Shown piece after piece: positions 23,452 through 62,771 of a stretch of DNA of 64,000 bases. Location of the stretch: NCBI GenBank assembly GCA_022750115.1, contig JAKIWI010000001.1, forward strand, positions 83,490 to 147,489. Reading direction: 5' to 3'. The stretch comes from Thermoplasmata archaeon. GTDB taxonomy: Archaea > Thermoplasmatota > Thermoplasmata > Lutacidiplasmatales > UBA184. The translations under genes and the position numbers were made by a program. The notes under the pieces were generated by a model. The model was not told the origin of the DNA, ran no database searches, and worked only from the letters and a program-made list of their open reading frames with translations. The stretch's first letter is position 1, and each line of letters begins with the position of its first letter.

Positions 23452-24237
23452 ATGACGCTGACGTGGCGCGACACCGGGACCGAGTCGGAGCCGCTCACCG
23501 ACGGAGGGATCGTCCTGTCGAGCTTTCCCTCGGCGGGGTTGGCCGCGACGATCGCGGGCCACTACATCGTCAAGACCCTGAAGCTCCCGCGCGTCGGGGT
23601 CTTCGAGGGGACCGAGGCGCAGCCGATCGCGGTCGTCCAAGGCGGTGTCGTGCACCCGCCCATTCGTGTGTACGGACGCGCCAACCTGTCCATCGTCCTG
23701 TCGGAGCTGCCGGTCGCCCAGGACACGGCGAACTCCGTGGCCCGGGCGATCCTCGATGGGGCCGCGAAGCGAACGGCGCGCCTCGTCGTCGGTCTCGAGG
23801 GCGTCGTGCCCCACCCCTACGAGGCGGAAGGAGATGCGGCCGACGGCCCGTCGACCGACGAGACCGTTTGGTTCGCTGCGGCTCGGGAAGACAAGACCAC
23901 CTCCGCGGAGTTTCGGACCGCCGGCATGCGCCGACTCGACGACGGGATCATCGGAGGGGTCTCGGGTGCGCTCCTCGTCGAGGGGATCACGAGTCCGACC
24001 GCCGTCTCGGTGCTCCTGGTGAGCGCTCGCCACGCGCCGCAGGGGCTCGCGGACCACCTCGCCGGTGCGAGCTTGATCGAGGCGCTGGACCGCCTCCTTC
24101 CGGACCTCAAGATCGACACGGCGCCGCTGCGCACGCAGGCGGCGATGATCGAGAAGGCGATCCGGCAGGCCCTGAAGACCCGTCCTCGGGGCGCGGAGTC
24201 GGAACCCGACCCCAACTCGCCCACGATCTACGGCTGA
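23452..24237 (+). CDS. PAC2-family proteasome assembly chaperone
   Basis: 261 aa resembling the PAC2/PbaA family (..IVLSSFPSAGLAATIAGHYIV.., ..IGGVSGALLVEG..). Confidence 0.65.
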   Translation: MTLTWRDTGTESEPLTDGGIVLSSFPSAGLAATIAGHYIVKTLKLPRVGVFEGTEAQPIAVVQGGVVHPPIRVYGRANLSIVLSELPVAQDTANSVARAILDGAAKRTARLVVGLEGVVPHPYEAEGDAADGPSTDETVWFAAAREDKTTSAEFRTAGMRRLDDGIIGGVSGALLVEGITSPTAVSVLLVSARHAPQGLADHLAGASLIEALDRLLPDLKIDTAPLRTQAAMIEKAIRQALKTRPRGAESEPDPNSPTIYG

Positions 24238-24260
24238 ATCGGGCCCCCGAGGGGAAACCG

Positions 24261-24443
24261 CTACGCGGTGGAACTCTCGCCGAACGACTCCGGGTAGGTC
24301 AGGAGGTACAACGAACCCCCGATCATGACCAGGACGAGGAACAGGATCGACAGCGGGTTCGAGGCGAATTGCCAGACCGTGACCGCCAGCAGGATCGCCG
24401 GAAGCACGATGGTGAGAGCGACCGTCAGCAGCCGGCCATCCAT
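24261..24443 (-). CDS. small two-helix membrane protein (60 aa)
   Basis: Two predicted TM helices. A TATA-like GCTTAAAC lies about 26 nt upstream of its ATG on the minus strand (24469..24477). Confidence 0.4.
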   Translation of the reverse strand: MDGRLLTVALTIVLPAILLAVTVWQFASNPLSILFLVLVMIGGSLYLLTYPESFGESSTA

Positions 24444-24507
24444 GACGGGAGTTCCGAGCCGGCTCGGGGTTTAAGCATTCCTCAGCGGCGCGACGTCACA
24501 GCGAGGC

Positions 24508-25092
24508 GTGATAGCCGCCCGGTCCGTCCGCCGCGGCGGAACCGCGATGTCCGAGCCCGAGCGTCGTTTCACCCGGTGGCGACGGGAGCCCGATCCAGGA
24601 CCCGGCTACACCCAAATCCCCGCCGATGGGGCGTGCCTCTCCGTCTTCTTGATCATTCGCGAAGCCAGCGGCTCCCCGCGTCTGCTCCTCGGCACGCCCC
24701 ACCCCTCGGCCGATTGGGGTCGGATCGGAGGGCTCGAACCCGCCCGACTCGCCCGCCTGGCCGGGCACCTGATGCTCCCATCTTCCCACCTCATCGAGTA
24801 CGAGTCCCCGCAGGAGGGCGCGGCTCGGATCGCGAGCGAGCAGCTCGGCCTCGTCGACCTCCCTCTCGCCGGTCCCGAGGTCGTCTCGGACGCCTACGGC
24901 CGACCCGGGGCTCCGGACCGGCACTGGGACCTCGACTTCCTCTTCCGGGCGAACTGGCCGGCCGGACGACCGCTCTCGTCCCCTAACTGGTCCCGCCTCG
25001 AGTTCGCGGACCCCCAGACGCTCCTGCGGGCCCGGTTCGGCCGTGCGCACGACGACATCCTGCGCTTCGCCGGCTTCGCGACCGCCGACTAG
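24508..25092 (+). CDS. hypothetical protein, NUDIX-fold-like with a degenerate Nudix box
   Basis: The beta-strand GACLSVFLIIRE is followed by a degenerate Nudix-box-like segment (ESPQEGAARIASEQLGL) that lacks the catalytic REUxEE glutamates. Confidence 0.35.
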   Translation: MIAARSVRRGGTAMSEPERRFTRWRREPDPGPGYTQIPADGACLSVFLIIREASGSPRLLLGTPHPSADWGRIGGLEPARLARLAGHLMLPSSHLIEYESPQEGAARIASEQLGLVDLPLAGPEVVSDAYGRPGAPDRHWDLDFLFRANWPAGRPLSSPNWSRLEFADPQTLLRARFGRAHDDILRFAGFATAD

Positions 25093-25129
25093 GCGGGCGC
25101 CCGCGATGGCGGGCGGAGCCGGGTCCCGC

Positions 25130-26053
25130 TCAGCGAAGTTCGGGGCGGCCCGGGATCGGCACGACGACCTCGAACGTGAGCTCGACGTCGTCGGTCGCTG
25201 CCGCCAGGGGGGGGGAAGCTCTCGGGAGGGGGAGGGGAGCGGGCGGTGGCCCCGCGGGTCCGATCGACGACGGGGTCGAGTGGGCGGTCCGCGCCATCGA
25301 CTCGCCGATGTCGAGGGCCGCGATCCGCTCGGCGTCCACGAGCGCTTCGACCGGGTTGAGCATCGACTCTTCGATGTGGGTCGCGATGTGCTCGGCCCAG
25401 ATGCCCGCAACCTCGCGGAAGCGGGTCTGGCGGTCGGTCGCGAGCAGCTCCTCGTTGTCGAGGACCGTCAGTGTCGCTTGCCGACGAAGGCGCTTTTCCA
25501 CGAAGGCGTCGAGGAAATGGAGCCCGGCGATCGCGCGGTCCGCGACCGCGCGCCGTTCCGCCTCGGCGGCGAACGGCTTGATGACGAAGACGCTCAGCAC
25601 CTCGGCCGAGCGGCTCGCGGCGTCGAGCACCGGCCCGAGGATCCCGGTGCCGCTCCCGCCGCCCAGCGAGGCGACGACCGTCACGAAGGTGGCGCCCTCG
25701 AAGACCCGGTCGAGCGCAGGGCCGGCGGCGCGGGCGAGCTGCCCAGCGGCCGCGACCGAGGTCGGGATGCCGAACCCCGAGCCGTCCTCCGCTCCGAGAC
25801 AGATCCGGCGGTCGAAGTCCTCGGCCTCCGCGACCCGCGGGTCGCAGTTGATCGCGACGGTCTCGACGAAGCGAAGGTGGCGACGGGCGATCTCCCGGCC
25901 GACCCGGACGCCCCCGCCGCCGACGGCGACGAGGAGGAACCGGACGTCCTGACCTAGTCGGACGCTCGGCTCCCAGAGCCCTGCGTCGACGTCGTCCGTC
26001 CGGCGAATCGTTCGGTCTCGGTCGGTTCCCTGTTGTTCGTTGGCCTCGCGCAC
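25130..26053 (-). CDS. FtsZ/tubulin-superfamily GTPase, short non-canonical form (lacks most of the FtsZ C-terminal domain)
   Basis: N-terminal nucleotide-binding motifs are present: DVRFLLVAVGGGGVRVG (G-box 1) and VVASLGGGSGTGILGPVLD (tubulin signature GGGTGSG variant), followed by VFVIKPFAAE. It is about 307 aa from a GTG at 26053; the start is uncertain. It ends about 60 aa after the T7-loop region. Confidence 0.6.
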   Translation of the reverse strand: MREANEQQGTDRDRTIRRTDDVDAGLWEPSVRLGQDVRFLLVAVGGGGVRVGREIARRHLRFVETVAINCDPRVAEAEDFDRRICLGAEDGSGFGIPTSVAAAGQLARAAGPALDRVFEGATFVTVVASLGGGSGTGILGPVLDAASRSAEVLSVFVIKPFAAEAERRAVADRAIAGLHFLDAFVEKRLRRQATLTVLDNEELLATDRQTRFREVAGIWAEHIATHIEESMLNPVEALVDAERIAALDIGESMARTAHSTPSSIGPAGPPPAPLPLPRASPPLAAATDDVELTFEVVVPIPGRPELR

Positions 26054-26088
26054 CGCCACCACCCCCGCCGTGAATCCTGACCCCTCGG

Positions 26089-26592
26089 CTACCGGCCGAG
26101 GACCCCCTTCCGCTCGAGCTCCTGCGACGTGTCGCGGAGCTCGCGCAACCTCTCGCGGTTGGCATCGGCGCCTCGAACGGCCGTCCGCGCCCGGTCGACC
26201 AGCTCTTGGACCTTCGCCTCGAGCTCGCCGCGACGGACGAGCTCGGCGAGGACGTCCGCAAGGTCGCGGCCGTTCCCGTTCAGCTCGCCGTAGACGCGGA
26301 GCGTCTCCACCTCGTCGACCCGGAGCCGGACCGGCACCTCGATCAGTTCCCGGGTCGGACGAGGGGTGGCGCTCGCAACGGCCGTGAGGGCCCGCGCCCG
26401 GAGGAATTCCCGGAGCGCGGAGCGCATCAGATCCGACCGGCTGCGGAACTCGCCACTGGCGACAAACGAGTCGACCAGCTGAAGCTCGCGGCGGTGGCAC
26501 CTGAGCGCAATGCGCTCATCCTCGGGGCCGATCCGTGTCGTGGACGGGGCACCGGCTCCGTCCGAATCGAGTTGCGGGGGTTTGTCGAACAC
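26089..26592 (-). CDS. tandem ribbon-helix-helix (CopG/Arc/MetJ-like) DNA-binding protein
   Basis: GTG start. First RHH unit is ERIALRCHRRELQLVDSFVASGEFRSRSDLMRSALREFL. Second RHH-like unit is IEVPVRLRVDEVETLRVYGELNGNGRDLADVLAELVRRG. It sits 36 nt upstream of the FtsZ-like gene. Confidence 0.6.
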   Translation of the reverse strand: MFDKPPQLDSDGAGAPSTTRIGPEDERIALRCHRRELQLVDSFVASGEFRSRSDLMRSALREFLRARALTAVASATPRPTRELIEVPVRLRVDEVETLRVYGELNGNGRDLADVLAELVRRGELEAKVQELVDRARTAVRGADANRERLRELRDTSQELERKGVLGR

Positions 26593-26912
26593 GGCTGGCG
26601 CGAGCTATGCAAAATCATCATACTTATAGTATGGGCCGGCCGCGCGACGAGAACGGGTTCTCGCGATTCGATCGGAGCTTCCCGGCGTTGTCGAACAAAT
26701 TTTCCGGACGCTTCGCGCGCGAAAATCGTTCGCGAGCTGCGTATAACCGGCCCGTTTTTTCGCGCGCGGAGTCGGTCCCAACTGCGGCCCGGGTGCGACG
26801 CGCATCCATACGTGTGTTGGCGCCGCTAGGGTCGCTCCGACGAGCCGCGCGGAGAACGTTCAAATACGCGACCCCGCCAGTACTACGACGGGCCCCCTGC
26901 CCTGAGAGGTTT

Positions 26913-29135
26913 GTGACCGCAGTTGCTCCCCGAGGCCGCCGCATCCGATCGTCTCGATTTCGCCGCTCGGGCGCCCACCGCAACCAGCGGGGAGTGTCCG
27001 ACGTGGTCGCCACGATCCTGCTCCTCGCGCTCACGGTGACGCTGTTCGCCTCGGTGTTCTTCTTCATCAACACTTTCCCGCACCCGCCGGCACAGCCGGC
27101 CAACCAGTTCTCGGCGTCGCTCGCTTACAACGGCGCGAACATCATCTCGGTTCACGTCCTCCACCTCGCCGGCCCGACCATCGCTGGTGTCTCGACGACT
27201 CAGACCGCGATCTACCTCCAGTCCGCCGCCAAGCCGGCGTTGTTCGCCACTCCGTTCACCATCGCCCAGGGCCTGAACGGCTCGTCGGTCTGGTCGCTCG
27301 GCCAGACCTGGACCCTCAACCTGACGTCGTACGGCTTGACGGTCGGCGACAACCTGACGATCTCCATCATCACGCAGTCGCAGCTGCTGTTCCGCATCAC
27401 CCTCCCCGGCTCGAACCCGAACATGCCGCCGATCTTCTCGCAGGCGGGCATCAACCCGGCGAGCCCCGGCCCCAACCAGGCGTTCACGGTGTTCGTCGGC
27501 ATCACCGACAACAACCTCCGGTTCAGCTCGGTGTTCGTGAACCTCTCCCAGATCCCTGGAGTTGTGGGGAGCGGCCTCCACCAGATGGCCCTGCTCGCGA
27601 CGTCCGGCCTGTGGATCTACACGCTCGCCGCCGGTTCGATCTCGACCGGCACCTACTACGTGTTCGTGAACGCGACCGACAACTCGAGCCTGCACAACTC
27701 GATCGCGATCCCCGTCTTCATCTCGAACACCGGCGGCGGCTCCTCCGCGCTCCAGGTCCAGGTCGGCGCGAACAACACGGCGCCCGTCGCGGGACTGCCC
27801 GTCTTGCTCCAAGCCGAAGTCACCAACACGGGCGGCTCGGCCGCGACCGTCGTCGTTCAGTTCTACGTTGGCGGCAACACCGTCGGCGGCCCGCAATCGC
27901 AGGCGATCCTGGGCGGCGGCACCGCGCTCTACACGCAGGCGTGGACTCCGGCGGCCGTCGGAACGTCCTCGGTCCAGGCGCTTGCCACGATGACCGGCTC
28001 CTCGGCGGAGAGCGGGATCTCGATTACGGTCTTCCCGAAGATCCTGTTCATCGCCCACGCCTACCCGGCGGCCTCGTTCCCCGCGTCGAACACGAGCGCG
28101 AACATCGCCCAGATGCTCACCGCCGACGGGGTCCCGTACACCGCGATGTCCGTCGCCTGCGGTTCGACCCTCCCGGCCACGGCGACGCTGAGGTTGTACG
28201 GCGTCGTGATCATCGATTTCGGGAGCGCGACGGGCCTCGCCTGCGCCCAAGTCCCGCCCGGCGCCGCGGAACAGACGAAGATCACCGGCGCCGCCACGAC
28301 GACCAACTTCTGGTTGATCGGCTCGAACGCGTTCACCGCGACGGCGTGCACGAGCTACTCCGCGGCGTTCCAGACCCAATTCGGCCTGGCGACCTCGGGG
28401 ACTTGCACGACCTCGAAGTCGGCGAGCACGTCGCTCACCTACACCTCGTCCGCGACGTCCCCCGCGCTGCGGTCCGACGGGATCACCGCGGGGACACTCT
28501 CCCTCAACCAGACGTACGCGGCCTCGGCGGCGTTCCAGCCGTACTTCGCGCTGACCCTCCAAGCCTCCGGCCACGCCTGGCTGAAGGACTCCGGAGCGCT
28601 GACCGTAGGCGCGTACACGAACGCCTCGACCGACCATCAGCAGCTGATCCTCGCCACCGACCCGACGCTGATCGCGACCAAGACCCCGAACAACCAGGCG
28701 TGGGGTACGGGGACGGGCGCCGACGCGGCCGTGCTCTACAACGGCGTCAACTTCCTTTGCGGGCTGTCCACCACGACGAACGCCGGCCGTGGTCTCCTCG
28801 ACCAAGGCGTCGCCGGCGTCGTGACGATCGGCTTGAAGCACAACCTCCCCACGCAGTTCTACGTGGCGGTCCGGACGAATGGACCGTCGGGCGGGGGCGT
28901 CTTCGCGACCCTGTACGTCGGCGGCTCGCCGGCGTACTATCTCGGGTCCCTCGTCACGGGGCTCGGCACGCCCGGCGGCGCCGGCGCGTGGACGTGGATC
29001 GCATTCAACTGGAGCGCGCCGGCCGCGGGCAACTTCGTGCTGTCGGTGGGGATCACGACGGAGAACCCTGACTACTATGCGGCGAACAACCTGATCGCGA
29101 TCTCGTTCTACAACACCGCGACCGTGTTCACGTAG
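26913..29135 (+). CDS. large secreted pilin-like surface protein with archaeal class III (type IV prepilin-like) signal peptide
   Basis: The start upstream of the hydrophobic helix is uncertain. A GTG at 26913 would give a basic 27 aa leader (VTAVAPRGRRIRSSRFRRSGAHRNQRG) before the predicted cleavage site G|VSDVVATILLLALTVTLFASVFFFINTF. About 700 aa follow, beta-rich with dense NxS/T sequons. The upstream 125 codons of the ORF are probably non-coding. Confidence 0.55.
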   Translation: MTAVAPRGRRIRSSRFRRSGAHRNQRGVSDVVATILLLALTVTLFASVFFFINTFPHPPAQPANQFSASLAYNGANIISVHVLHLAGPTIAGVSTTQTAIYLQSAAKPALFATPFTIAQGLNGSSVWSLGQTWTLNLTSYGLTVGDNLTISIITQSQLLFRITLPGSNPNMPPIFSQAGINPASPGPNQAFTVFVGITDNNLRFSSVFVNLSQIPGVVGSGLHQMALLATSGLWIYTLAAGSISTGTYYVFVNATDNSSLHNSIAIPVFISNTGGGSSALQVQVGANNTAPVAGLPVLLQAEVTNTGGSAATVVVQFYVGGNTVGGPQSQAILGGGTALYTQAWTPAAVGTSSVQALATMTGSSAESGISITVFPKILFIAHAYPAASFPASNTSANIAQMLTADGVPYTAMSVACGSTLPATATLRLYGVVIIDFGSATGLACAQVPPGAAEQTKITGAATTTNFWLIGSNAFTATACTSYSAAFQTQFGLATSGTCTTSKSASTSLTYTSSATSPALRSDGITAGTLSLNQTYAASAAFQPYFALTLQASGHAWLKDSGALTVGAYTNASTDHQQLILATDPTLIATKTPNNQAWGTGTGADAAVLYNGVNFLCGLSTTTNAGRGLLDQGVAGVVTIGLKHNLPTQFYVAVRTNGPSGGGVFATLYVGGSPAYYLGSLVTGLGTPGGAGAWTWIAFNWSAPAAGNFVLSVGITTENPDYYAANNLIAISFYNTATVFT

Positions 29136-29219
29136 CGACCGGCGCCTCGCCGTCGCGACGCGGCTCCCGCGGCCCGCCCGGGCGCACCGTTACAAGCCGA
29201 AAGGGCCTCCCGGCCCGCG

Positions 29220-31841
29220 GTGTCGCGCCACGCCCTGGTCTTCCTCGCGGTCGTCCTCGTCGCGCTCCCGACGCTCACCACCTCCGGATGGGACCAGCGG
29301 CTCTCCGGGGCCTTCCCATCGCCTTCGGAATCGGTGGGGCATGACCGCGCGCTCTCCGCCCGACCTGCGGCTTCGAGCTCGCTCGGCGGGAACTGGTCGA
29401 CGTACCTGCAAAACCCGGGACGGACGGCCGCCAACCTCGCCGAACGCACCCTGAGCCCATCGAACGCCTCGCGGCTCGCCATCGAATGGAGGATCAAGTC
29501 GAACGGTTCGGACTTCGGCTCCCCGACGATCGTCAACGGCACCGTCTATGCCGGCTCGTGGGACGGAAGCGAGTACGCGATGAACGCGACGACCGGCCAC
29601 ATCCTCTGGAAGACGTTCCTCAGCACCGACCCGAACTGCAGCTGGGGGGACCCGATGGGCATCGACGGGAGCGCGGCGGTGTGGAACGGCACGGTGTTCG
29701 TCGGGGGCGGGAACGACTACTGGTACGCCCTCAACGCGACCAACGGCGCGGTCGATTGGAAGGTGAAGGTCACCGACACGACGTCCGCCGGTGGCGGGTT
29801 CAATTGGGCGAGCCCGCTCCTCTACCACGGTTACGAGTACATCGGCATCGCGAGCTGCATCGATAGCCCCCTCGTCCAGGGCCGCATGCTGATGGTGAAC
29901 CTCACTGGGAACCACTCGATCGTCCACCGGTTCAACTTCACGCCCGGCGGCGAGTTGGGAGCGACGATCTGGACGACACCCGCCGTGGACACGGCGACGA
30001 ACACTGTCTGGGTGGCGACGGGCAACGACGACGGAGTCCACTCGCAGCCGCTTTCCCAGTCGATCGTGGCGCTGAACGCGACCAACCTGAGCCTGTTGGG
30101 TTCTTGGATGGTTCCCGGCGTAAACGGAACGGATTCGGACTTCGGCGGCGGCGTGATCCTGTTCCACGACGCTTCCGGCCGAGAGCTCGTGGGGGCGGAG
30201 AACAAGAACGGCGTCTTCTACGCGCTCAACCGGTCGAACGTCACGTCGAACGGCTCGTGGGGACCGGTGTGGAACATCCCGACCGCGAGCGGCTTCTCTC
30301 CGGCCTCGTTCGATGGGACGACGCTCTACCTCGGCGGCGCCGGGGCCACGTTGAACGGCACGTCCTACGCGGGAACGGTCGAGGCGATCGACCCATCGGA
30401 CGGGTCGGTGAAGTGGACGCAGGGAACGGGAGGTCCGATCGACGCGGGTCTCGCGTACGCGAACGGCCTCGTCGCGGAGGGTTCAGGAGGCACCCTCGAG
30501 GTCATGAACGCCTCTTCGGGGGGGATTCTCTCCACCCTCGCGGTCCCCTCGGGCCAGTCCATCGAGGGCGCCGCGAGCATCGAGAACGGCCAGGTGTTCT
30601 TCGAGTCGGGCGATTTCTCGAGCCACGGGACGTTCCTCGCCGCGGGCATCCCGCTGGCGTCCGCGTCCCTCGTCGCCCAACCGCCGAATGGGAGCGCTCC
30701 CCTCAACATCTCCTTCGTCGGCGTCGTCGCAGGAGGGCTTCCGCCCTACAATTTCAGCTGGTCGTTCGGCGATGGCCAGACGGGATACGGGGCGGCTCCG
30801 GTCCACGCGTACCCCGCCATGGGGAGCTACAACGTCTCGGTCGTGGTACGGGATATGCGGAACGCGACCCAGACGGCGAACTCCAATGTGATCGTGACCC
30901 CCCCGCTTTCGGCGTCGTCCGCAGCAGTCCCCTCGATAGGGCCCGCACCCCTTACCGTGACGTTCACGGGGACGGCGGCGAACGGAGCCGGCGGCCCCTA
31001 CCGGTACACCTGGTCGTTCTCCGACCAGGGCGCGACGGCCACCGGGAGCGTGGTCACCCACACGTTCCACTCCGCGGGGACCTACTCCGTCGTCCTGACC
31101 GTGCACGACCTCTCGAACGGCACGATCACGAGCTCGGTCCAGGTCGTGGCGACCTCGGCGTTCCTCGCGAGCGCCCTCGCCACACCGACGACCGGCACGG
31201 TCCCCCTCCAGGTCGCTTTTCAAGCGCTCGGCAGCTTCGGCCAGGCGCCGTACCAGTTCCAGTGGGCGTTCGGAGACGGCAGCGCGAACTCCACCGGCCG
31301 GTTCGCGAACCACACCTACCTGAGCACGGGGTCGTTCAATGCCACGCTCCAGGCGAGCGATGCGCTCGGGACCGAGCACAACCTCAGCGTCCCGATCGTC
31401 GTGACCGCGGTTCCCCCGGCGCTCTTCACGTCGTACACGGAGGTGAACTCCTCGATCACCACGTGTCCGGGCCCGTCGTTCACGGTGCATCTCGTGGCGG
31501 TCTCGAGCGGCGGCACTCCGCCGTATGTCGACACCTGGACGTTCGGGGACAGCTCCCCACTCCAGCGGGGTGGGACGGCGAACCACACCTACACCAGCGC
31601 CGGCACCTTCGAGCTCACGCTGACCACGAACGACTCGGCCGGAGGCTCCACGACGGCGTCCGGCGTGGTCACGGTCCAGCTGGCGACGTGTCCGGTCGGG
31701 ACACACCCGCTCCCGCACTCCACGCCCCAGGGCGGGCTCCTCGCCTGGCAGTATGCGCTCGCGGGCGGCCTCGCCGTCGTCGTCCTCGCCGCGGCGGTCG
31801 TCGTCCTGTGGCGACGGCGCCGCGCGCCGCCGCCGAGCTAG
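29220..31841 (+). CDS. secreted PQQ-like beta-propeller protein with four PKD domains and C-terminal TM anchor
   Basis: Signal peptide present. PQQ-type repeats occur (..TIVNGTVYAGSWDGSEYAMNATTGHILWK..). Four PKD-like repeats each carry a WSFGDG/WTFGD core. C-terminal TM helix plus RRRR stop-transfer. Very dense N-glycosylation sequons. Confidence 0.7.
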   Translation: MSRHALVFLAVVLVALPTLTTSGWDQRLSGAFPSPSESVGHDRALSARPAASSSLGGNWSTYLQNPGRTAANLAERTLSPSNASRLAIEWRIKSNGSDFGSPTIVNGTVYAGSWDGSEYAMNATTGHILWKTFLSTDPNCSWGDPMGIDGSAAVWNGTVFVGGGNDYWYALNATNGAVDWKVKVTDTTSAGGGFNWASPLLYHGYEYIGIASCIDSPLVQGRMLMVNLTGNHSIVHRFNFTPGGELGATIWTTPAVDTATNTVWVATGNDDGVHSQPLSQSIVALNATNLSLLGSWMVPGVNGTDSDFGGGVILFHDASGRELVGAENKNGVFYALNRSNVTSNGSWGPVWNIPTASGFSPASFDGTTLYLGGAGATLNGTSYAGTVEAIDPSDGSVKWTQGTGGPIDAGLAYANGLVAEGSGGTLEVMNASSGGILSTLAVPSGQSIEGAASIENGQVFFESGDFSSHGTFLAAGIPLASASLVAQPPNGSAPLNISFVGVVAGGLPPYNFSWSFGDGQTGYGAAPVHAYPAMGSYNVSVVVRDMRNATQTANSNVIVTPPLSASSAAVPSIGPAPLTVTFTGTAANGAGGPYRYTWSFSDQGATATGSVVTHTFHSAGTYSVVLTVHDLSNGTITSSVQVVATSAFLASALATPTTGTVPLQVAFQALGSFGQAPYQFQWAFGDGSANSTGRFANHTYLSTGSFNATLQASDALGTEHNLSVPIVVTAVPPALFTSYTEVNSSITTCPGPSFTVHLVAVSSGGTPPYVDTWTFGDSSPLQRGGTANHTYTSAGTFELTLTTNDSAGGSTTASGVVTVQLATCPVGTHPLPHSTPQGGLLAWQYALAGGLAVVVLAAAVVVLWRRRRAPPPS

Positions 31842-31849
31842 GCGCGCGC

Positions 31850-34162
31850 CTACCGGTCCATCCGACGGACCACGACGATGGCGACCGCGATCATCGCGGC
31901 GCCCCCGAGGACCGCGAGCGCCACGACGGCCGTGTCCGCGCCGATCGAGCTCGACGAGCCGCCGTTGGTGCTCGGGTGGGTCGTCTCGTTGTTGCTCGCG
32001 GCGGCCGCACTGACGGAGACGTGGAACTGCTGGCTCACGGAGATCCCGCGGTGGTCGACGACGGTGAACGTCGCATCGTACGAACCGGCGGACGCGTAGG
32101 CGTGGGTCGCGTCGATGGTCGCCGCGGCGTGCTGGTCCCCGAAGTCCCAGACCGAGGTGTACGGAGCCTCGCCGCCATTGACGGTTCCCGAGAACGAGAC
32201 GCTCGAGTTCGCGACGGCGGTCGGCGGGGCCGTCCCGCTCGCGCTCAGGCCCGGCCCGACGGTGATGTTGACCCAGGAGGTGTGCAGGATCCCGCGCGCG
32301 TCGGTGACGGTGAAGGTCGTGGTGAGCGCGCCGGGGATCGTGAACGTGTGGTTCACGGCCGTTCCGGTCGCGGTCGACCCGTCGCCGAACGCCCACGCCG
32401 TCGTGTACGGCAGCACGCCGCCGGACATCGATGAACTGAACCAGACCTGGAGCGGGGCCGCTCCGTCGGTGGCCGACGCCACGACGCCGCTCCCCAGAGG
32501 CGCGATGACCAGAGGCTCCGCCACGATCGTGAACGTGTCGTTCCAGCTCGCCCCGGCCGAGTCCGTGACGTTCACGGTGGCGGTGAACGTTCCGGACGCC
32601 CCGTAGACGAACGACGTCGTGTCCGACGTGCTGGTGTTCGTCCCGGCGCCGGCCGACCACAGGACGTCGTAGGGCGCGCTGCCGCCCGACGCGGCGAAGG
32701 AGCATTGGACCGTGAGCGGCACGACCCCGGTCGTCGGGAACGCCTGCGCCGACGCCGTCAAGGGCGCGATCACGCGGACGAAGAACGACGTGCTGGCGGA
32801 GCTACCGTTCGCATCGTTCGCCCAGACCGTCGCCATGTAGCGTCCGGGAGTCCCGTAGAAGTTGCTGGTCGCGGGCTCGGTCGAGGAGTTGCCGTCGCCG
32901 AACTCCCACAGGTAGCTGATGGTGCCGCTTCCGCCGACCGCGGTGGCGTCAAACCCGACCCGGATCGACCCGGTGGAGTACGACGCCGTGTCGTTCGCCG
33001 TGAGGTTGACCCCCGCATACACCCAGGTGTCGGTGAGGTCGCCGAGCGCGCCAGATCCTCCCCAGAGAATGACCTGTGCGGCGGACGGGTCGTAGGCCAT
33101 CTCGCCGAAGAATCGGGGGAGCGGTGCGTCGTTCGGGTGGCTGGGGGTCCACTGGTCGCCGGAGAACAGCCAGGTGTCCCCGAACGTCTGGGCGCCGCTT
33201 CCTCCGAACAGAACCAGGGAGGAGATGGCCACGTCATAGGAGAAGCTCGCCATCGACCGAGCGCTCGGGTGAACCGATTCGGTGAGCTGGGTCCAGTTGT
33301 TGGCGTGGAACGCCCAGGTGTCGGAGTCGGTCCCGGCGGCGTAGTCGTCGCCGCCGAACAGGATGACTTGGTTGTCCGCCGCATCGTAGCGGAGCGCGAC
33401 GTTCTCCCGGGCCGACGGAGCGGAGCTGAGGCTGACCTGGGTCCAGTTCCCGCCAACGAACGTCCACGTGTCGCCAATGGCGCTCCCGGCGCAGCCACCG
33501 AAGAGGACCATCTCGTTGTCGGCCCCGTCCCAGGTCATCGCCGACGCCCAGCGGGCCGACGGATGGGTCGAGGGGGTGAGTTGCGTCCAATTGCCGTGGA
33601 GGAACGTCCAGGTGTCGCCGTAGTCGCCGCCGTTGCCCGAGCCGCCGAACAGCAGGACGTAGCCGTCGATCGGGTCCCAGGCGAGCGTGGAGTGGTCGCG
33701 AGCGGTCGGGGAGGCCTTCGGGTGGATCTGGGTCCAGCTCCCGTTCGCGTAGGTCCACGTGTCGCCGAGGTAGCCGCCTCCCGACCCGTAGCCGCCGAAC
33801 ATGAGCAGGTAGTGGTCGATGGGGTCGTAGGCGAACGAGCGGCCGTAACTTCGCGGAGCGGGGGACTTCCCCGAGGTGTTCGTCACGTTGTCCCACCCGG
33901 GAACGCCGGTGGCGGTCGCGTTTTGGCCCGGGCCGATCGCGCCCGTGGCGGAGCGGAGCGAAGCATGGGAGATCGCGGGGGACGGAGCAGCGAGGGCCGA
34001 GGCCGCCGCCAGTCGGGCGGGGGCCCCCGTCACGATGGAGTGAGCTGCCGAGTGGGGGATGGGCGCGAACGCCGAGGCCCCGAGCAGCGTGCCGAGCGCG
34101 AGGAGGACAAGAACCGAGGTCGACCAGGCAAGAGTTCGTCGGCCAAAGATCGATGTCGTCAC
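31850..34162 (-). CDS. secreted Kelch-repeat beta-propeller protein with PKD domains and C-terminal TM anchor
   Basis: Signal peptide present. Five or six Kelch-like repeats (..LFGGxGxxxxxGDTWTF..NWTQ..). Four PKD-like repeats (..WEFGDGN.., ..WAFGDGS.., ..WDFGDQ..). C-terminal TM helix. Confidence 0.7.
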   Translation of the reverse strand: MTTSIFGRRTLAWSTSVLVLLALGTLLGASAFAPIPHSAAHSIVTGAPARLAAASALAAPSPAISHASLRSATGAIGPGQNATATGVPGWDNVTNTSGKSPAPRSYGRSFAYDPIDHYLLMFGGYGSGGGYLGDTWTYANGSWTQIHPKASPTARDHSTLAWDPIDGYVLLFGGSGNGGDYGDTWTFLHGNWTQLTPSTHPSARWASAMTWDGADNEMVLFGGCAGSAIGDTWTFVGGNWTQVSLSSAPSARENVALRYDAADNQVILFGGDDYAAGTDSDTWAFHANNWTQLTESVHPSARSMASFSYDVAISSLVLFGGSGAQTFGDTWLFSGDQWTPSHPNDAPLPRFFGEMAYDPSAAQVILWGGSGALGDLTDTWVYAGVNLTANDTASYSTGSIRVGFDATAVGGSGTISYLWEFGDGNSSTEPATSNFYGTPGRYMATVWANDANGSSASTSFFVRVIAPLTASAQAFPTTGVVPLTVQCSFAASGGSAPYDVLWSAGAGTNTSTSDTTSFVYGASGTFTATVNVTDSAGASWNDTFTIVAEPLVIAPLGSGVVASATDGAAPLQVWFSSSMSGGVLPYTTAWAFGDGSTATGTAVNHTFTIPGALTTTFTVTDARGILHTSWVNITVGPGLSASGTAPPTAVANSSVSFSGTVNGGEAPYTSVWDFGDQHAAATIDATHAYASAGSYDATFTVVDHRGISVSQQFHVSVSAAAASNNETTHPSTNGGSSSSIGADTAVVALAVLGGAAMIAVAIVVVRRMDR

Positions 34163-34259
34163 GGCTACTCCCCGTTCGGCGATGCCGCGGGGGTAGTTCC
34201 GTCTTTGGACCGCCCACCGAGCCGGTCGGCGTCGTCCGGACGAACCGGGCGAGCCCCGG

Positions 34260-35354
34260 TCAGCTCCCGCCGGACTTCAGGGGGGTGCCGGCGCCGGGGC
34301 TCAGCGGAGCTCCGCACTTCCAGCAGTTCTTCTCATCCGGGTACACGACAGCGCCGCACTTGGGACAACTCGACTCGGCCCGACGGGCCGCTCCGGTTAC
34401 GGCGGGCGAGGCGCTCGGCGGGGGAGTCCCCCCGGTCGAGCTCGGCGGGGCTCCGGTCGTCGGAGGGATCATCTCCGCGTCCGAGGCGGCCCGCTGCGCT
34501 TTGCGACGCGCTTCGCGGCTCTTCAGGAATACGTAGACGAGGAGGGCGAGGAAGAAAACGATCCCCGGATAGAACAGGATGTCGATGGCGGTCTGGGGCA
34601 GCAGGAGCTGGTACGTCGTCGCCCACGTGCCGGTGATCGGGCCCTGCACCGCCCCGTAGGCGTTCGGGACGGCGAGGAAGATCCACTGGTAGGTCGTGTT
34701 CGTCTTGTTGGCGCTCGCGTTGAACGTCGTCGCGCGCGCGAGGAGCCCCATCTGCCACCACCAGATGTTCGGGCCAGGGAGGTTCACGTGGAACGTCACG
34801 GGCGTCGGGGACGCGCTCACCGTCGTGACGTTCTGACCGACCGGGTAGAACGGGTAGCCGGAGCCGCAGAACGGAGAGGAGTTCCCCGTCGCGCCTGGGC
34901 AGGTACTGACGTAGACCCACAGTTGGTACGGCGTGTAGTTCGTCGGAAGTCGATTCGGATACAGGTCGACGGTGAACGCGAAAGCCGAGCCGCCGGCCCC
35001 GTTGTAGGGCGTGGCGGTGGCGTTGGTCAGAACCGGTGCACCGGTGGAGGTGTTGCCGTGATCCGTCGAGGAGTTCACGGCGGGGCTCGGCGTCATCGCC
35101 TCGGATGTGAGGCCGTAGTTGACGATCGGCGCCGCGAGGAGCAGCGCGGCGATACCCAGGATCGCGAGGTGCTTGGGGACCTTCCAGCCGAGGTAGATCG
35201 GAAGCCCGAGCCCGGCAAGGAGGAACGTCGGGATCGCGAAGTACGGCCCGAGGTAGAAGAACGACGCCGCGAGGGTCGCGAGGGCGATCAGGAACAGGAC
35301 GATCTTGCCGGCGCGGGTCTGCACCAGCGCCTTCAAGCTGACCGCTCGCGGCAC
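34260..35354 (-). CDS. membrane protein with extracytoplasmic sequon-rich domain and C-terminal cytoplasmic zinc ribbon
   Basis: Start reassigned to a GTG at 35354, which lies 26 nt downstream of a TATA box. Two N-terminal TM helices, an external domain, a C-terminal TM helix, then a CPKCGAVVYPDEKNCWKCGAPL zinc ribbon. Confidence 0.5.
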   Translation of the reverse strand: MPRAVSLKALVQTRAGKIVLFLIALATLAASFFYLGPYFAIPTFLLAGLGLPIYLGWKVPKHLAILGIAALLLAAPIVNYGLTSEAMTPSPAVNSSTDHGNTSTGAPVLTNATATPYNGAGGSAFAFTVDLYPNRLPTNYTPYQLWVYVSTCPGATGNSSPFCGSGYPFYPVGQNVTTVSASPTPVTFHVNLPGPNIWWWQMGLLARATTFNASANKTNTTYQWIFLAVPNAYGAVQGPITGTWATTYQLLLPQTAIDILFYPGIVFFLALLVYVFLKSREARRKAQRAASDAEMIPPTTGAPPSSTGGTPPPSASPAVTGAARRAESSCPKCGAVVYPDEKNCWKCGAPLSPGAGTPLKSGGS

Positions 35355-35380
35355 GGAACGGCCTCCGAGCGGGCCACGGC

Positions 35381-35390
35381 ATATAAGGGA
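35381..35390. promoter_or_regulatory. shared bidirectional TATA element (ATATAAGGGA / TCCCTTATAT)
   Basis: This is the only AT-rich element in the 56 bp gap between divergent genes. It lies 26-28 nt from the minus-strand GTG (35354) and 20-22 nt from the plus-strand TTG (35410). Confidence 0.4.
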
Positions 35391-35409
35391 ACCGCGAGTC
35401 GCCGGCTCG

Positions 35410-36705
35410 TTGGCCGCAGATCGGTTCGCTCTGATCATCCTCGACGGACTCGGCGACCGCCCGCACCCGGCGACCGGGGGGGTCAGCCCGGTGGAGGCGG
35501 CGAGCACGCCGAATCTGGACCGGCTGGTGGCGCAAGGGTCGATCGGCCGCGTCACGGTCGTCGGTCCGGGAATCGCGCCCGAGTCGGACGCCGGTGTGTT
35601 CGCGCTCCTGGGCTACGACCCGGTGCACGACTCGCCCGGTCGCGGGGTGTTGGAGGCGCTGGGGGTCGGAGTGGACCTCGTTCCCGGGGACGTGGCGCTC
35701 CGGCTCAACTTCGCGACGGCCGACGGTTCCGGGGCGATCCTCGACTCCCGGGTCGGGAGGACTCTTACGACCGAACACTCGCGGGCGTTGGCCGAGGCGT
35801 TGACGCAAGCGGACCTGCTGGCCGATCAGGGGATCCGTGCCGAGGTCCGGGCCACCGTCGGTCACCGCGGCGTCCTGTGGCTCCATTCGATGGACGGGCG
35901 AGCGCTCTCGCCCGAAGTGTCGAATTCCGACCCGTACTACGAGCGAGTCGGCGGCATGGGGCGCGCTCGGATGCCGACCGACGCTCGACCGATTCCCGTG
36001 CGAGCCCTGGACGGCTCGGACGCGGCGAAACGGACGGCGGCGGCCATCGACCAGTGGCTCGCGCGCGCGGCCGCTCGACTCGCCGGGCACTCGGTCAACG
36101 CCCGCCGGGCCGTGGCGGGGCAGAAGGTCGCCAACACCATCCTGGTCCGCAACGCCGGTTCGCTTCCGAAGACGCCGCCCCTCTCGTTCGAGCAGAAGCA
36201 CGGTCTCCGCGGCGCAGCCGTCACGGAAATGCCGGTCGAACGAGGGATCGCCCGATGCCTCGGGCTTCAGGACCGGTTCGTGGGCCCGATGGGACGCGAC
36301 CGCGACGCCTCCTTGGCGGAGCGATCGGTCGTCACGCTCGACGCGCTCCGCGAGTCTCCGTTCGTCTACCTCCACCTGAAGGGGCCCGATGAGCCCGGCC
36401 ACGACGGCGACGCCCCGGCGAAGAAATCGGTCGTCGAAGCGCTGGACCGGTCGTTCTTTGGTCCCTTCCTCGCGGGTGTCGATTGGTCGCGGACCCGGGT
36501 CGCTGTGACGGCCGACCACGCCACGCCATGCTCGCTCAAGGGGCACGCCGACGACCCGGTTCCGTTCGTGCTGGCGGGGGCCGGCGTCGCTCCCTCTCCG
36601 CCGAGCGGGAAGTTCGGGGAGAGCCTCGCGGCTCGTGGGGCTCTGGGGGACCACCGGGGCGCCGAGGTGGTCGACCTGTTGCTCGGGCGCCCTGCCCGTT
36701 CATGA
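35410..36705 (+). CDS. apgM: 2,3-bisphosphoglycerate-independent phosphoglycerate mutase, archaeal type (aPGM)
   Basis: N-terminal RFALIILDGLGDRP metal-site motif. Resembles the archaeal iPGM/phosphopentomutase superfamily. TTG start inferred from the TATA position. Its stop overlaps the trm5 ATG. Confidence 0.8.
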   Translation: MAADRFALIILDGLGDRPHPATGGVSPVEAASTPNLDRLVAQGSIGRVTVVGPGIAPESDAGVFALLGYDPVHDSPGRGVLEALGVGVDLVPGDVALRLNFATADGSGAILDSRVGRTLTTEHSRALAEALTQADLLADQGIRAEVRATVGHRGVLWLHSMDGRALSPEVSNSDPYYERVGGMGRARMPTDARPIPVRALDGSDAAKRTAAAIDQWLARAAARLAGHSVNARRAVAGQKVANTILVRNAGSLPKTPPLSFEQKHGLRGAAVTEMPVERGIARCLGLQDRFVGPMGRDRDASLAERSVVTLDALRESPFVYLHLKGPDEPGHDGDAPAKKSVVEALDRSFFGPFLAGVDWSRTRVAVTADHATPCSLKGHADDPVPFVLAGAGVAPSPPSGKFGESLAARGALGDHRGAEVVDLLLGRPARS

Positions 36706-37724: not shown

Positions 37725-37731
37725 GAGGACA

Positions 37732-40101: not shown

Positions 40102-40177
40102 ACGACGCCCAACTTCGCGCGATCCCCTTCGGGATCGATCCTGCCGCCCTCCCGGAGGCGTCCTCGGCCTGCGGATA

Positions 40178-41038: not shown

Positions 41039-41269
41039 GTGCGGGCGGAGGCCTTAGGGTATTATTCGCGTCCCCCCACACCGGGCCGTGCCGCGAGGGG
41101 GGTGAGCCGCACGACGTTGCCGCCTCCGCGGCGATCGCCTGGTTGGCGGGGTCGTTGGCTCTCGGCTATGAGTTCACGCTGGCCAGTCGGCCGCCCGACG
41201 AACGATTAATACCAAGGGTCGACTCCCGCGGCTCTCGGGGGCAGATCGCCCCCAAGTTGAGGGGCATCG

Positions 41270-44328: not shown

Positions 44329-44335
44329 CGGACTT

Positions 44336-45631: not shown

Positions 45632-45757
45632 CGTCGAGATTCGGGTCGTTCGAGATTAACTCGGGAGGTTCACATCATAACCGCCCAAGACCGCGCCTGC
45701 GCGGCGGAGACGTCCGCCCAGAGCGATATCTAGCTCCGAGCGCGTGAGCGATTTCGC

Positions 45758-52212: not shown

Positions 52213-52240
52213 GGGACGACCCGAACACTCGGTCGCACGC

Positions 52241-52246
52241 TTATCA
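52241..52246. promoter_or_regulatory. shared bidirectional TATA-like element (TTATCA / TGATAA) between divergent genes
   Basis: It lies 27 nt from the minus-strand GTG (52212) and 34 nt from the plus-strand GTG (52281). Confidence 0.3.
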
Positions 52247-52280
52247 CGGTTCGGCCCGTCCGGAACTCCGGAGAACCCGC

Positions 52281-62575: not shown

Positions 62576-62771
62576 GACCGAAATAAAGTGAAGGTCCCGG
62601 TATAAAAAACGTCGGGACGCGCCGGGCGAGGTTCCGCCCCCGTCGCGATGCGATTCCGACGACGACGGGAGAGCCCCAACGGCCGGCGACGTTCGGCTCT
62701 CGGCCGGGGAGCTGTATCTTTCGCGCCCGCCGATCGCGACGCTCCGTTCGGCGGCGCCCGTCGCTCGCGGG

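Follow-up and report, generated by a model that had tools for sequence, protein, structure and literature searches.

The locus, which belongs to a soil archaeon of the order Lutacidiplasmatales, comprises two genes on the minus strand of the window (the whole 64-kb stretch of DNA that was analysed), the upstream one encoding a CdrS-like ribbon-helix-helix (RHH) protein and the downstream one a short protein of the FtsZ family (Table 1). Both open reading frames described in an earlier note on this DNA were confirmed at their positions, and the RHH gene indeed lies directly upstream of its partner, with a gap of 35 nt rather than the 36 nt counted before. This spacer suggests that the two genes are co-transcribed, and a scan of positions 24200-27000, spacer included, revealed no terminator-like site. 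An ORF of 456 aa (25130-26500) from the mechanical list of reading frames was discarded as a high-GC artefact; homologs begin about 30 residues ahead of the conserved RLGQDVRF block.

The surface-protein island reported alongside the pair is real, as the window encodes Pilin_N/CARDB and PKD proteins, and the operon is flanked by a divergent pilin-like surface-protein gene that is conserved within Lutacidiplasmatales. On the other side, an opposite-strand ORF (24508-25092) separates the FtsZ-like gene of the window from the gene of a 60-aa protein with two putative hydrophobic membrane helices, as read from the sequence. This small protein is a conserved downstream neighbor in Lutacidiplasmatales only and is absent from Methanomassiliicoccales loci, and therefore we do not count it among the core members of the operon. 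In the inspected loci no toxin gene adjoins the RHH gene.

Table 1. Coordinates of the genes, protein segments and upstream elements of the locus
Feature	Position	Strand	Remarks
Distal TGTTCGACA 9-mer	26689..26697	-	in the divergent intergenic region, 106 nt before the proximal copy
AT-rich core (putative promoter)	26605..26630	-	TATA-like ACTATAAGTA (26621-26630), conserved TTTTGCATAG (26605-26614)
Proximal TGTTCGACA 9-mer	26583..26591	-	overlaps the GTG start codon, encodes invariant M-F-D
CdrS-like RHH gene	26592-26089	-	GTG start, TAG stop, 167 aa
RHH unit 1, residues ~24-68	26389-26523	-	RHH models
Putative RHH unit 2, residues ~82-135	26188-26349	-	alignment to the second unit of homologs
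Intergenic spacer, 35 nt	26054..26088	-	GGGGGTGGTG Shine-Dalgarno-like stretch, read from the sequence
Short FtsZ-family gene	26053-25130	-	GTG start, 307 aa
FtsZ N-terminal GTP-binding domain, residues 32-206	25436..25960	-	pLDDT >90; motifs
Single long helix, residues 212-256	25286..25420	-	replaces H7, T7 loop and start of C-terminal domain
Disordered proline-rich linker, residues 257-288	25190..25285	-	pLDDT <50; variable sequence and length
Conserved C-terminal peptide DVELTFEV, residues 289-296	25166..25189	-	E291, T293, E295 invariant
60-aa protein, two hydrophobic segments by sequence reading	24261..24443	-	present in 80/84 loci

Upstream of the operon the 9-mer TGTTCGACA occurs twice in the window, with a third copy in a few relatives, against a chance expectation of 0.32 hits per 64 kb. 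The spacing of the pair, about 105 nt, is conserved: of 72 related loci, 67 have the distal copy at -103 to -106, three have their only exact copy at -125/-126, and two have a copy with one mismatch at about -105. A further site in the window (56715-56723) was rejected as a coding coincidence, as it encodes HLFDN within an S-adenosylhomocysteine hydrolase gene. Nearly all of 73 aligned upstream regions carry TTTAAGTA or TATAAGTA at a fixed position, and the AT-rich core is the putative promoter. The two TGTTCGACA copies stand around the TATA box and the start codon, in the geometry of an operator rather than of an iteron array, and together they are probably the operator.

Domain architecture of the two proteins

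The N-terminal domain of the FtsZ-family protein carries the motifs T1 GGGGVR, NCD, T4 GGGSGTG, T6 KPFAAEAERR and LDNE, and aligns to FtsZ residues ~14-175, with FtsZ alignments ending at about residue 210 of the query. A GTPase domain with the T1 (GGGG) and T4 (GGGTG[ST]G) signatures places the protein in the FtsZ/tubulin superfamily, in agreement with the earlier description of a truncated member with intact nucleotide-binding motifs. Downstream of this domain, H7 runs on in the predicted model as one continuous helix, which is predicted with confidence over residues 212-256; only P234 and E236 are invariant there. Neither the family alignment nor the predicted model contains a recognizable T7 synergy loop motif (NxDxxD), and the C-terminal globular domain (FtsZ_C) is absent: PF00091 is the only Pfam match and residues 257-307 are disordered. 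The earlier note had the chain end shortly beyond the T7 loop, but that loop is missing, and the long helix, the linker and the terminal peptide follow in its place. Within the subclade of the window, the T3 loop is degenerate (GFGIPTS in place of GGSP), so that GTP sensing may be altered.

The peptide at the end of the linker, which reads D[VA]ELTFEV across the family, is a probable partner-binding motif, and a related V[DE][MLI][TS]F motif is found in the tails of Methanomassiliicoccaceae short FtsZs. In archaeal FtsZ the C-terminal motif that binds SepF is 'GID' (PMC8178401); the linker and conserved peptide are present here, but D[VA]ELTFEV does not resemble it.

As the earlier note had proposed, the protein is neither a canonical FtsZ nor a CetZ. 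Besides lacking T7 and FtsZ_C, it scores 62.7 bits against the TIGR00065 equivalog cut-off of 295.2, and the family profile gives only 14.1 bits (E 0.23) for CetZ2 of H. volcanii (4b45). To our knowledge, no tubulin-superfamily polymer is built without the bottom face. This counts against a self-sufficient cytoskeletal or membrane-remodelling element with a CetZ- or FtsZl1-like role in shape, envelope or vesicles, which would assemble through a new interface, e.g. by coiled-coil pairing of the 45-residue helix. Such an element is conceivable, as the long helix, predicted with confidence, might hold together an assembly of its own, the operon is flanked in Lutacidiplasmatales by the divergent pilin-like gene and the small protein with two hydrophobic segments, and a published phylogeny contains an uncharacterized Thermoplasmata FtsZ-like clade between FtsZ2 and CetZ (PMC9723716). 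However, neither the surface-protein nor the small-protein neighbor is kept in Methanomassiliicoccales, the match to CetZ is negligible, and the vWA, kinase or GTPase genes of FtsZl1-type operons (PMC2875224) are lacking, and on balance we consider this explanation unlikely.

Assignment to the FtsZl1-type families, which the earlier note had offered as an alternative, also failed. FtsZl1 and FtsZl2 are divergent FtsZ-superfamily proteins without the canonical C-terminal domain that occur in archaea and bacteria beside conventional FtsZ (PMC2875224). FtsZl1 has no alignable T6-H7 region, possesses a coiled-coil domain and a unique C-terminal domain (Makarova & Koonin 2010, PMC2875224), and is encoded in operons with vWA-domain proteins, kinases and GTPases (PMC2875224), whereas in the protein described here T6 (KPF..E..RR) and LDNE/H7 align well to FtsZ and the operon partner is an RHH protein. 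PF13809 has no match in the window protein, and no vWA gene was found in any inspected locus.

The partner can be assigned to the ribbon-helix-helix (Arc/MetJ) superfamily by a beta-alpha-alpha unit that matches RHH models. In the window protein itself this first unit is weak and below threshold (RHH_8, 22.2 bits against a cut-off of 25.4), although RHH_1 finds 34 of the 35 family members (best E 9.4e-7). The C-terminal part is made up of a long helix reaching to about residue 161 and an invariant tail ending in ...GR; across at least 120 clusters the length varies only from 162 to 182 aa, and conservation extends over the full 167 aa. The two RHH units reported earlier are supported, although in this sequence only unit 1 is detectable. 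A comparison of residues 20-72 with 80-135 of the family by hhalign yielded no similarity, so that the case for a tandem arrangement rests on homologs: those from Methanomassiliicoccales, homologous to the whole RHH protein, match RHH models over two separate stretches, the second of which aligns with residues 82-135 of the window protein. The second unit in the window protein is thereby supported indirectly. The AF2 monomer model was uninformative (pTM 0.35, with the ribbon modelled as helix), and the sole RHH match in a fold search of the PDB was a weak ParD. Single-chain tandem RHH proteins have a precedent in TraY of the F plasmid, a relaxosome accessory protein with two RHH units per polypeptide that, as here, could form a DNA-binding ribbon in one molecule; the likeness is one of architecture.

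CdrS (NF058555) is the best NCBIfam match of the window protein (28.2 bits, E 1.4e-6, cut-off 100) and the top match for all 5 RHH proteins tested (22-36 bits), scores that lie far under the family cut-off and come from a domain that is short and promiscuous.

Phylogenetic distribution and ancestry of the pair

The short-FtsZ family was found in at least 118 GTDB species of Thermoplasmata, including Ca. Lutacidiplasma. Its members are uniformly ~300-310 aa long, and the family is discrete, with a gap in score from 141 to 104 bits before everything else; short FtsZs are annotated automatically as 'cell division protein FtsZ' or 'hypothetical'. In the alignment 48 columns are invariant, and they take in the T1, T4 and T6 motifs as well as the terminal peptide. 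From the uniform length, the invariant columns, the score gap and the number of species, we conclude that the truncation is ancestral and not a product of decay, and that the gene is not a pseudogene. A decaying remnant, i.e. a truncated ftsZ pseudogene beside an unrelated antitoxin-like RHH gene, might have been suspected of a protein about half the size of an FtsZ next to an RHH protein, a class that often gives weak ParD/VapB antitoxin matches. It is extremely improbable given the above, the retention of the terminal peptide, the presence in a second order, the lack of an adjoining toxin gene and the conservation of the RHH protein over its entire length.

The pair is conserved as neighbors: all 84 Lutacidiplasmatales loci examined have the RHH gene immediately before the FtsZ-like gene in the same orientation, and so do 5/5 loci of other short-FtsZ lineages, where the flanks are different. 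In Methanomassiliicoccales the short FtsZs (at least 120 clusters, 257-310 aa) are directly preceded by an RHH gene of 126-148 aa and flanked by genes for Ile-tRNA synthetase, MMPL, POR and NAD kinase. Since the pair is kept despite these different flanks, the pairing itself is conserved. The RHH families of the two orders are homologous (hhalign, 95.9 %), and their short-FtsZ families align through H7 (99.7 %, 195 columns) and have the tail motif V[DE][LMI][TS]F in common. All sequences found come from uncultured genomes, those of Methanomassiliicoccales included.

In a neighbor-joining tree of 97 GTPase domains (187 columns, 100 bootstraps), calculated from a set without labelled FtsZ1, FtsZ2 or CetZ, the Lutacidiplasmatales family is a fully supported long branch (100 %), but a grouping with the short forms of Methanomassiliicoccales received only 24 % and the sister group of the family 24-25 %. 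The family profile gives 47 bits for FtsZ1 of M. jannaschii, as compared to 53-69 for bacterial FtsZ. Neither the 64-kb window nor the flanking regions of the 84 loci encode a canonical full-length FtsZ or SepF. High-GC full-length archaeal FtsZs appeared among the distant matches (P0331/P0539) and are not tied to Lutacidiplasmatales genomes.

The locus is single-copy, chromosomal and syntenic in at least 118 species, on chromosomal contigs of up to 2.3 Mb with conserved housekeeping flanks (FEN1, PAC2). Searches of plasmid, phage and viral sequences (tblastn against PLSDB and INPHARED; IMG/VR) identified no relatives. PADLOC yielded no defence-system match and PHROG only marginal ones, and on these grounds the defence-system and phage readings were rejected.

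These results bear on the proposal, made in the earlier note, of a TubZRC- or ParMRC-like module, in which the RHH protein would be a centromere adaptor sitting on the repeats and the tail of the GTPase would engage it, so that chromosomal DNA is moved or anchored. In formal terms the layouts resemble each other, in that TubZRC also comprises a DNA-binding gene upstream of a tubulin-superfamily GTPase with a functional C-terminal tail, as well as upstream repeats; a flexible linker with a conserved terminal peptide would fit, and the long C-terminal helix of the RHH protein could mediate protein contacts. Other points speak against it. TubR is a winged-helix protein, not an RHH protein, and the RHH protein here has its best match in a known regulator of transcription. 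TubZ, a filament-forming protein, has both tubulin domains, and its filaments depend on the T7 loop and C-terminal domain that the short FtsZ lacks. The TubZRC centromere is an iteron array, whereas here there are only two or three 9-mers (two in the window, 106 nt apart) that flank the TATA box and the start codon. TubZRC is plasmid- or phage-borne, as opposed to a chromosomal locus without mobile-element relatives. Moreover, the short-FtsZ family profile gives 12-14 bits (E 0.2-0.7) for TubZ/RepX against 53-69 for FtsZ, and similarity to TubZRC/PhuZ proteins in general is negligible (12-20 bits; PHROG PhuZ, 17 bits). We therefore regard a segregation or DNA-positioning module of this type as very unlikely.

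A proposed variant of the cdrS-ftsZ2 operon

Although a short FtsZ-like GTPase paired with an RHH adaptor had been presented as an undescribed system, archaeal FtsZ homologs with an RHH gene directly in front are already known from the cdrS-ftsZ2 operon (PMC7439475, PMC8406309), and ftsZ2 has been noted to occur 'frequently with parD' (PMC8178401). Co-transcription of cdrS-ftsZ2 and its role in division have been published for Halobacteria (PMC7439475, PMC8406309), and the locus is reported to be widely conserved in Euryarchaeota (Darnell et al. 2020, PMC7439475; Liao et al. 2021, PMC8406309). The present pair has the same arrangement, with a small chromosomal RHH gene immediately preceding an FtsZ homolog in the same orientation, and CdrS is the best-scoring family for the RHH protein, though far under its cut-off. 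There are also clear differences: CdrS is a single RHH unit of ~60 aa, as compared to the two units in a 167-aa chain with a long C-terminal helix, while FtsZ2 is full-length (PF00091 plus C-terminal domain), as compared to an N-terminal domain without T7 loop and with another tail peptide. Overall, the pair looks like an undescribed variant of the archaeal cdrS-ftsZ2 division operon rather than a plasmid-style segregation cassette. What appears to be new is the variant and not the layout itself, as we found no description of the version with a tandem-RHH protein and a half-length FtsZ; likewise, literature searches brought up no description of a truncated or short FtsZ in Thermoplasmata, and neither the Lutacidiplasmatales paper or its supplements nor PMC12220078 contains FtsZ data.

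Shortened FtsZ paralogs that coexist with canonical FtsZ are known in bacteria, namely FtsZ3 (with a partial GTPase domain) and FtsZ1 of Agrobacterium tumefaciens and FtsZm of Magnetospirillum (bioRxiv 10.1101/412759). Like the short FtsZ described here, A. tumefaciens FtsZ3 has retained no more of the tubulin domain than its N-terminal part; it was diffuse and dispensable (bioRxiv 10.1101/412759). The truncated bacterial paralogs are lineage-restricted and have no linker, C-terminal peptide or dedicated RHH partner, whereas the archaeal protein possesses a linker and conserved peptide and has been kept with its partner across two orders.

We favor, at about an even chance, the interpretation that the pair is a vertically inherited chromosomal operon of Thermoplasmata, a local division module of the cdrS-ftsZ2 type with an FtsZ that has a single polymerization face. 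The tandem-RHH chain would form a two-stranded DNA-binding ribbon within a single molecule, and this CdrS-like factor would bind both TGTTCGACA direct repeats, about ten helical turns apart, one site being upstream of the TATA box and the other over the start codon. Binding would autoregulate the operon, and control may possibly extend to further division genes and to the pilin-like gene on the divergent side. The role as a transcription factor, the autoregulation and the link to cell division are inferred from the features described above. As the 'one-faced' FtsZ keeps the nucleotide-binding (top) face and has lost the bottom face made up of the T7 loop and the C-terminal domain, GTP binding is likely and extension of a canonical protofilament would be impossible, as would activation of a neighbor's GTPase. 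Its most likely mode of action, though a speculative one, is that a full-length FtsZ subunit or filament end offers its T7 face as the docking site for the GTP face of the short protein; the docked protein would cap or modulate the filament, while the proline-rich linker and the D[VA]ELTFEV peptide would tether the complex to a putative partner, itself a matter of speculation. Such capping requires a full-length FtsZ or SepF in the same genomes.

We know of no precedent in the tubulin superfamily for a GTP switch or sensor, which the short FtsZ might be instead: a non-polymerizing protein that regulates the RHH factor or another partner and ties transcription of division genes to GTP status. 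The loss of the bottom face with retention of the nucleotide pocket and the strict coupling to a transcription factor in two orders are in line with such a switch. However, a linker with a conserved peptide is an architecture typical of filament tethering, the switch is purely inferential, and we judge it quite unlikely. More broadly, the short FtsZ may work as a half-tubulin without polymerization at all, either as a tethered end-capper of FtsZ or as a GTP switch with the RHH protein on DNA, a suggestion we make tentatively and think rather doubtful. As a dedicated end-capper, tethered to the membrane or to a partner, it would determine how long and how dynamic the FtsZ filaments of Thermoplasmata are; the GTP switch with a tandem-RHH protein on DNA would amount to a minimal tubulin-based device for positioning the chromosome or the division site. 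Either would be an undocumented mode in the tubulin superfamily, conserved in at least two archaeal orders.

FtsZ-based division in archaea is known from a handful of proteins, namely FtsZ1, FtsZ2, SepF, CdrS, PRC-barrel proteins and CdpA, studied mostly in haloarchaea. The widespread and strictly conserved pair brings in an FtsZ partner without the half that is needed for protofilament building and hydrolysis, in which a tether-like tail and a regulator have been kept. Censuses that count such short forms as full FtsZ would overstate the FtsZ copy number of Thermoplasmata. Methanomassiliicoccales have cultured members, and thus the function of the pair can be tested if one of them carries it. 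An action on full-length FtsZ would make the short FtsZ a Z-ring regulator of a new, built-in kind and nature's equivalent of the 'bottom-face' capping mutants that have been engineered and used to define FtsZ filament polarity; if it acts alone, it would extend what the tubulin fold can do.

A shortened FtsZ and its tandem RHH partner

Re-reading of the ORFs in the window (archaeal, G+C ~70 %) reproduced the coordinates of the two genes, as well as the motifs GGGGVRVG, GGGSGTG and KPF..E, described in the earlier note. The spacer between the gene for the ribbon-helix-helix (RHH) protein and that for the FtsZ-family protein (here "short FtsZ") includes a GGGGGTGGTG stretch; a 456-aa ORF overlapping the RHH gene is a high-GC artefact. 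The N-termini of all short FtsZ homologues lie ~30 residues ahead of a conserved RLGQDVRF block in the family alignment.

Features of the window discussed in the text
Feature	Position	Strand	Remarks
9-mer TGTTCGACA, distal copy	26689-26697	minus	106 nt upstream of proximal copy, ~ten helical turns
9-mer TGTTCGACA, proximal copy	26583-26591	minus	overlaps GTG start; encodes invariant M-F-D
RHH gene, 167 aa	26592-26089	minus	GTG start
Short FtsZ gene, 307 aa	26053-25130	minus	GTG start; 35 nt downstream of RHH gene
194-aa ORF	24508-25092	plus	no Pfam match; convergent, between short FtsZ gene and 60-aa gene
60-aa protein	24261-24443	minus	two hydrophobic segments that read as membrane helices; match to DUF7649 weak (17.8 bits)
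Surface-protein island	26535-35612		divergent from RHH gene
Metabolic cluster	37624-47650		PEP synthase/PPDK-type enzyme; fused 3-hydroxyacyl-CoA dehydrogenase/enoyl-CoA hydratase; family III CoA-transferase; acetyl-CoA synthetase-like AMP-binding enzyme
~1199-aa ORF	48919-52518	minus	very large
1300-aa ORF	59144-63046	minus	very large

Pfam detects the Tubulin/FtsZ GTPase domain in short FtsZ (48.1 bits, cut-off 33), and the FtsZ equivalog TIGR00065 covers only residues 40-209 (62.7 bits vs cut-off 295). The AlphaFold2 model, calculated from 36 family members, comprises the FtsZ N-terminal domain, a single helix (212-256) and then disorder, with pLDDT >90 for residues 32-250; its top Foldseek matches are FtsZ structures (E 2.5e-11, ~200 columns). 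Against PDB sequences the family profile reaches 53-69 bits with bacterial FtsZ and 47 with M. jannaschii FtsZ1, compared with ~20 with PhuZ and 12-14 with TubZ/RepX and CetZ. Analysis of the family alignment reveals that T1, NCD (in place of NTD), T4, T6 (KPF.CEGERR) and LDNE are invariant or almost so, while T3 is degenerate in the window's own subclade (GFGIPTS vs GGSP elsewhere); neither an NxDxxD T7 loop nor the FtsZ C-terminal domain was found in it. The tail consists of a long helix, a variable proline-rich linker and a peptide D[VA]ELTFEV with an invariant core, and no archaeal GID SepF-binding motif was seen there. Lacking T7 and the C-terminal domain and retaining the linker and peptide, short FtsZ is, on its sequence, best described as the nucleotide-binding half of FtsZ with an FtsZ-style tail.

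Among NCBIfam models the RHH protein matches haloarchaeal CdrS best (28.2 bits, E 1.4e-6, cut-off 100), and Pfam RHH_8 falls slightly below threshold. Its family is conserved end to end, nearly always 162-170 aa long, and matches RHH_1 in 34/35 members; both folds originally assigned, FtsZ/tubulin GTPase and RHH, are correct. The chain opens with an invariant MFD, continues with an RHH unit (24-68) and, at 82-135, a second segment of beta-alpha-alpha-like type, and closes with a long helix and a C-terminus that is likewise invariant. The monomer model was uninformative, and hhalign detected no similarity between the two halves (residues 20-72 vs 80-135 of the family). The proposal of two RHH units is probably right nevertheless, because Methanomassiliicoccales homologues (126-148 aa) match CdrS, NikR and ParD RHH models in two separate stretches and align to the window protein over both units.

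Distribution of the pair and its promoter

A word-indexed search with short FtsZ returned >120 clusters, all labelled Thermoplasmata and 300-320 aa long nearly throughout, with few shorter. In the exhaustive profile search, 21 of 1.84 billion representatives matched at <1e-30, after which the score drops from 141 to 104 bits and the lower matches align only in the GTPase core of ordinary FtsZs. Relatives are encoded in at least 118 species among GTDB representative genomes, including Candidatus Lutacidiplasma silvani; the window accordingly belongs to the order Lutacidiplasmatales, soil Thermoplasmata described as having ~69 % G+C (PMC9287336). These data argue for a real, strongly conserved family and lead us to reject a decayed gene. 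The profile search also gave other short FtsZ proteins (257-303 aa) that end after H7, and a search seeded with these yielded at least 120 clusters, the named ones being Methanomassiliicoccales. The two families align through H7 (hhalign 99.7 %) and have in common V[DE][LMI][TS]F near the C-terminus. Automatic annotation often labels the short proteins (257-310 aa; P0304, P0421-P0538 and members of their clusters) "cell division protein FtsZ" and even "FtsZ 1", or else hypothetical; automated FtsZ copy counts in Thermoplasmata may therefore be inflated by proteins without half the fold.

The RHH gene lies directly upstream of short FtsZ, on the same strand, in 84/84 Lutacidiplasmatales loci fetched. 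These loci are broadly syntenic, with a divergent pilin-like gene upstream and the 60-aa two-hydrophobic-segment protein, PAC2 and FEN1 downstream, so that pair conservation here, taken alone, could stem from general collinearity, which makes loci outside the order decisive. Five were inspected: four have common flanks (Ile-tRNA synthetase, MMPL, pyruvate:ferredoxin oxidoreductase, NAD kinase), the fifth, from a separate lineage, has flanks unlike these, and all five differ from the Lutacidiplasmatales neighborhood, yet in each an RHH-type gene on the same strand precedes short FtsZ by 30-110 nt. Given also the alignment through H7 and the common tail motif, the pairing itself is conserved in at least two orders.

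The 60-aa gene is found just downstream of short FtsZ, on the same strand, in 80/84 Lutacidiplasmatales loci and was not found at the Methanomassiliicoccales loci inspected; the product might be a lineage-specific membrane partner. The 194-aa ORF is confined to the window's closest relatives (L004-L009) and is therefore a recent insertion splitting otherwise adjacent genes.

The 9-mer TGTTCGACA (0.32 hits expected by chance per window) occurs at +1 of the RHH start in 72/72 related loci scanned. In 67 of them there is a second exact copy at -103 to -106, accompanied in four by a further one at -125/-126; three other loci have their sole upstream copy at -125/-126, and two (L008, L023) have one at about -105 with a single mismatch. 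Between the copies there are a conserved TATA-like box (TTTAAGTA or TATAAGTA) and TTTGCATAG. One Methanomassiliicoccales locus exhibits a similar layout, with GTATGACG at -52 and +2. We infer that the pair is a putative operator for the RHH protein, which would be autoregulated. As the 9-mer overlaps the start codon with conserved spacing, the M-F-D N-terminus may be constrained at the DNA level besides the protein level. A third hit in the window, at 56715, is a coding coincidence.

The surface-protein island encodes a pilin-like protein of ~866 aa that combines CARDB with the N-terminal signal of archaeal type IV pilins, two proteins of the PKD/beta-propeller type (PQQ, Kelch; 800-900 aa), and one of 450 aa with a zinc ribbon at its end; synteny of the pilin-like gene with the RHH operon extends to most Lutacidiplasmatales loci. 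The sole Pfam matches of the 1300-aa protein are several C-terminal zinc-ribbon/DZR motifs, and the ~1199-aa ORF has none at E<=1e-5. For Lutacidiplasmatales an organoheterotrophic lifestyle with use of fatty acids has been proposed, and the metabolic cluster agrees with it.

Relation to known systems and possible role

Among described systems the cdrS-ftsZ2 operon comes nearest. Its regulator CdrS, a small RHH transcription factor that shares a transcript with ftsZ2, is required for normal haloarchaeal division, and the locus is reported to be conserved across Euryarchaeota (PMC7439475, PMC8406309); Pende et al. also noted ftsZ2 "frequently with parD" (PMC8178401). The earlier note was therefore incorrect in calling such a pairing undescribed. 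The present pair differs from cdrS-ftsZ2 in that the regulator is a tandem RHH protein with a long helical extension and the FtsZ consists of the N-domain only, followed by a different tail, and our literature searches found no description of this truncation or of the tandem-RHH partner. Truncated bacterial paralogues exist (A. tumefaciens FtsZ3, Magnetospirillum FtsZm; bioRxiv 10.1101/412759), but without the tail and partner gene. One phylogeny contains a Thermoplasmata "FtsZ-like" clade, with no further comment there (PMC9723716). The NJ tree of GTPase domains leaves the position of short FtsZ, including descent from FtsZ2, without resolution. No full-length FtsZ is encoded in the 64-kb window or the flanks of the 84 loci; Pende et al. 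report SepF and three FtsZ homologues in Methanomassiliicoccus intestinalis (PMC8178401).

The initial comparison with plasmid partition cassettes did not survive: membership in TubZRC fails on the tested features (TubZ/RepX at 12-14 bits; no relatives in plasmid, phage and viral searches), as does membership in ParMRC. The FtsZl1 alternative (PMC2875224) fails likewise, as does CetZ (12-14 bits vs the family profile). A DNA-positioning cassette is nonetheless a rival reading of the pair.

P0276 (375 aa) is a high-GC, full-length, divergent FtsZ-like protein whose N-domain has in common with the Lutacidiplasmatales family the signature LP.LLE(S/A)A..S...VF.VKPF..EG. It has the smallest mean distance to this family in the tree matrix and may be a full-length relative. 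P0262 from Candidatus Altiarchaeum (826 aa) is a natural single-chain FtsZ dimer, a tandem fusion of two complete FtsZ units that is conserved among Altiarchaeum MAGs (cluster of 23 members).

In the FtsZ protofilament each nucleotide pocket is covered by the T7 loop and C-terminal domain of the adjacent subunit, which trigger hydrolysis, and bottom-face mutants poison assembly sub-stoichiometrically; these contacts and mutants were reportedly described by Oliva et al. 2004, Redick et al. 2005 and Du et al. 2018. We favor a role in which short FtsZ, controlled by a CdrS-like RHH regulator and tethered through its conserved tail, would cap or modulate full-length FtsZ, since a protein with the nucleotide face only could still dock onto the T7 face of FtsZ, yet could not be extended. 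Short FtsZ might alternatively self-assemble into a new filament, or serve as a non-polymerising GTP switch. We see about an even chance that the pair is a division-related module of the CdrS/FtsZ2 type; capping as the specific mechanism is a tentative and rather doubtful suggestion. The truncated FtsZ with its tandem-RHH partner is a variant on the known RHH-FtsZ pairing, and as such of solid interest for research on archaeal cell division.
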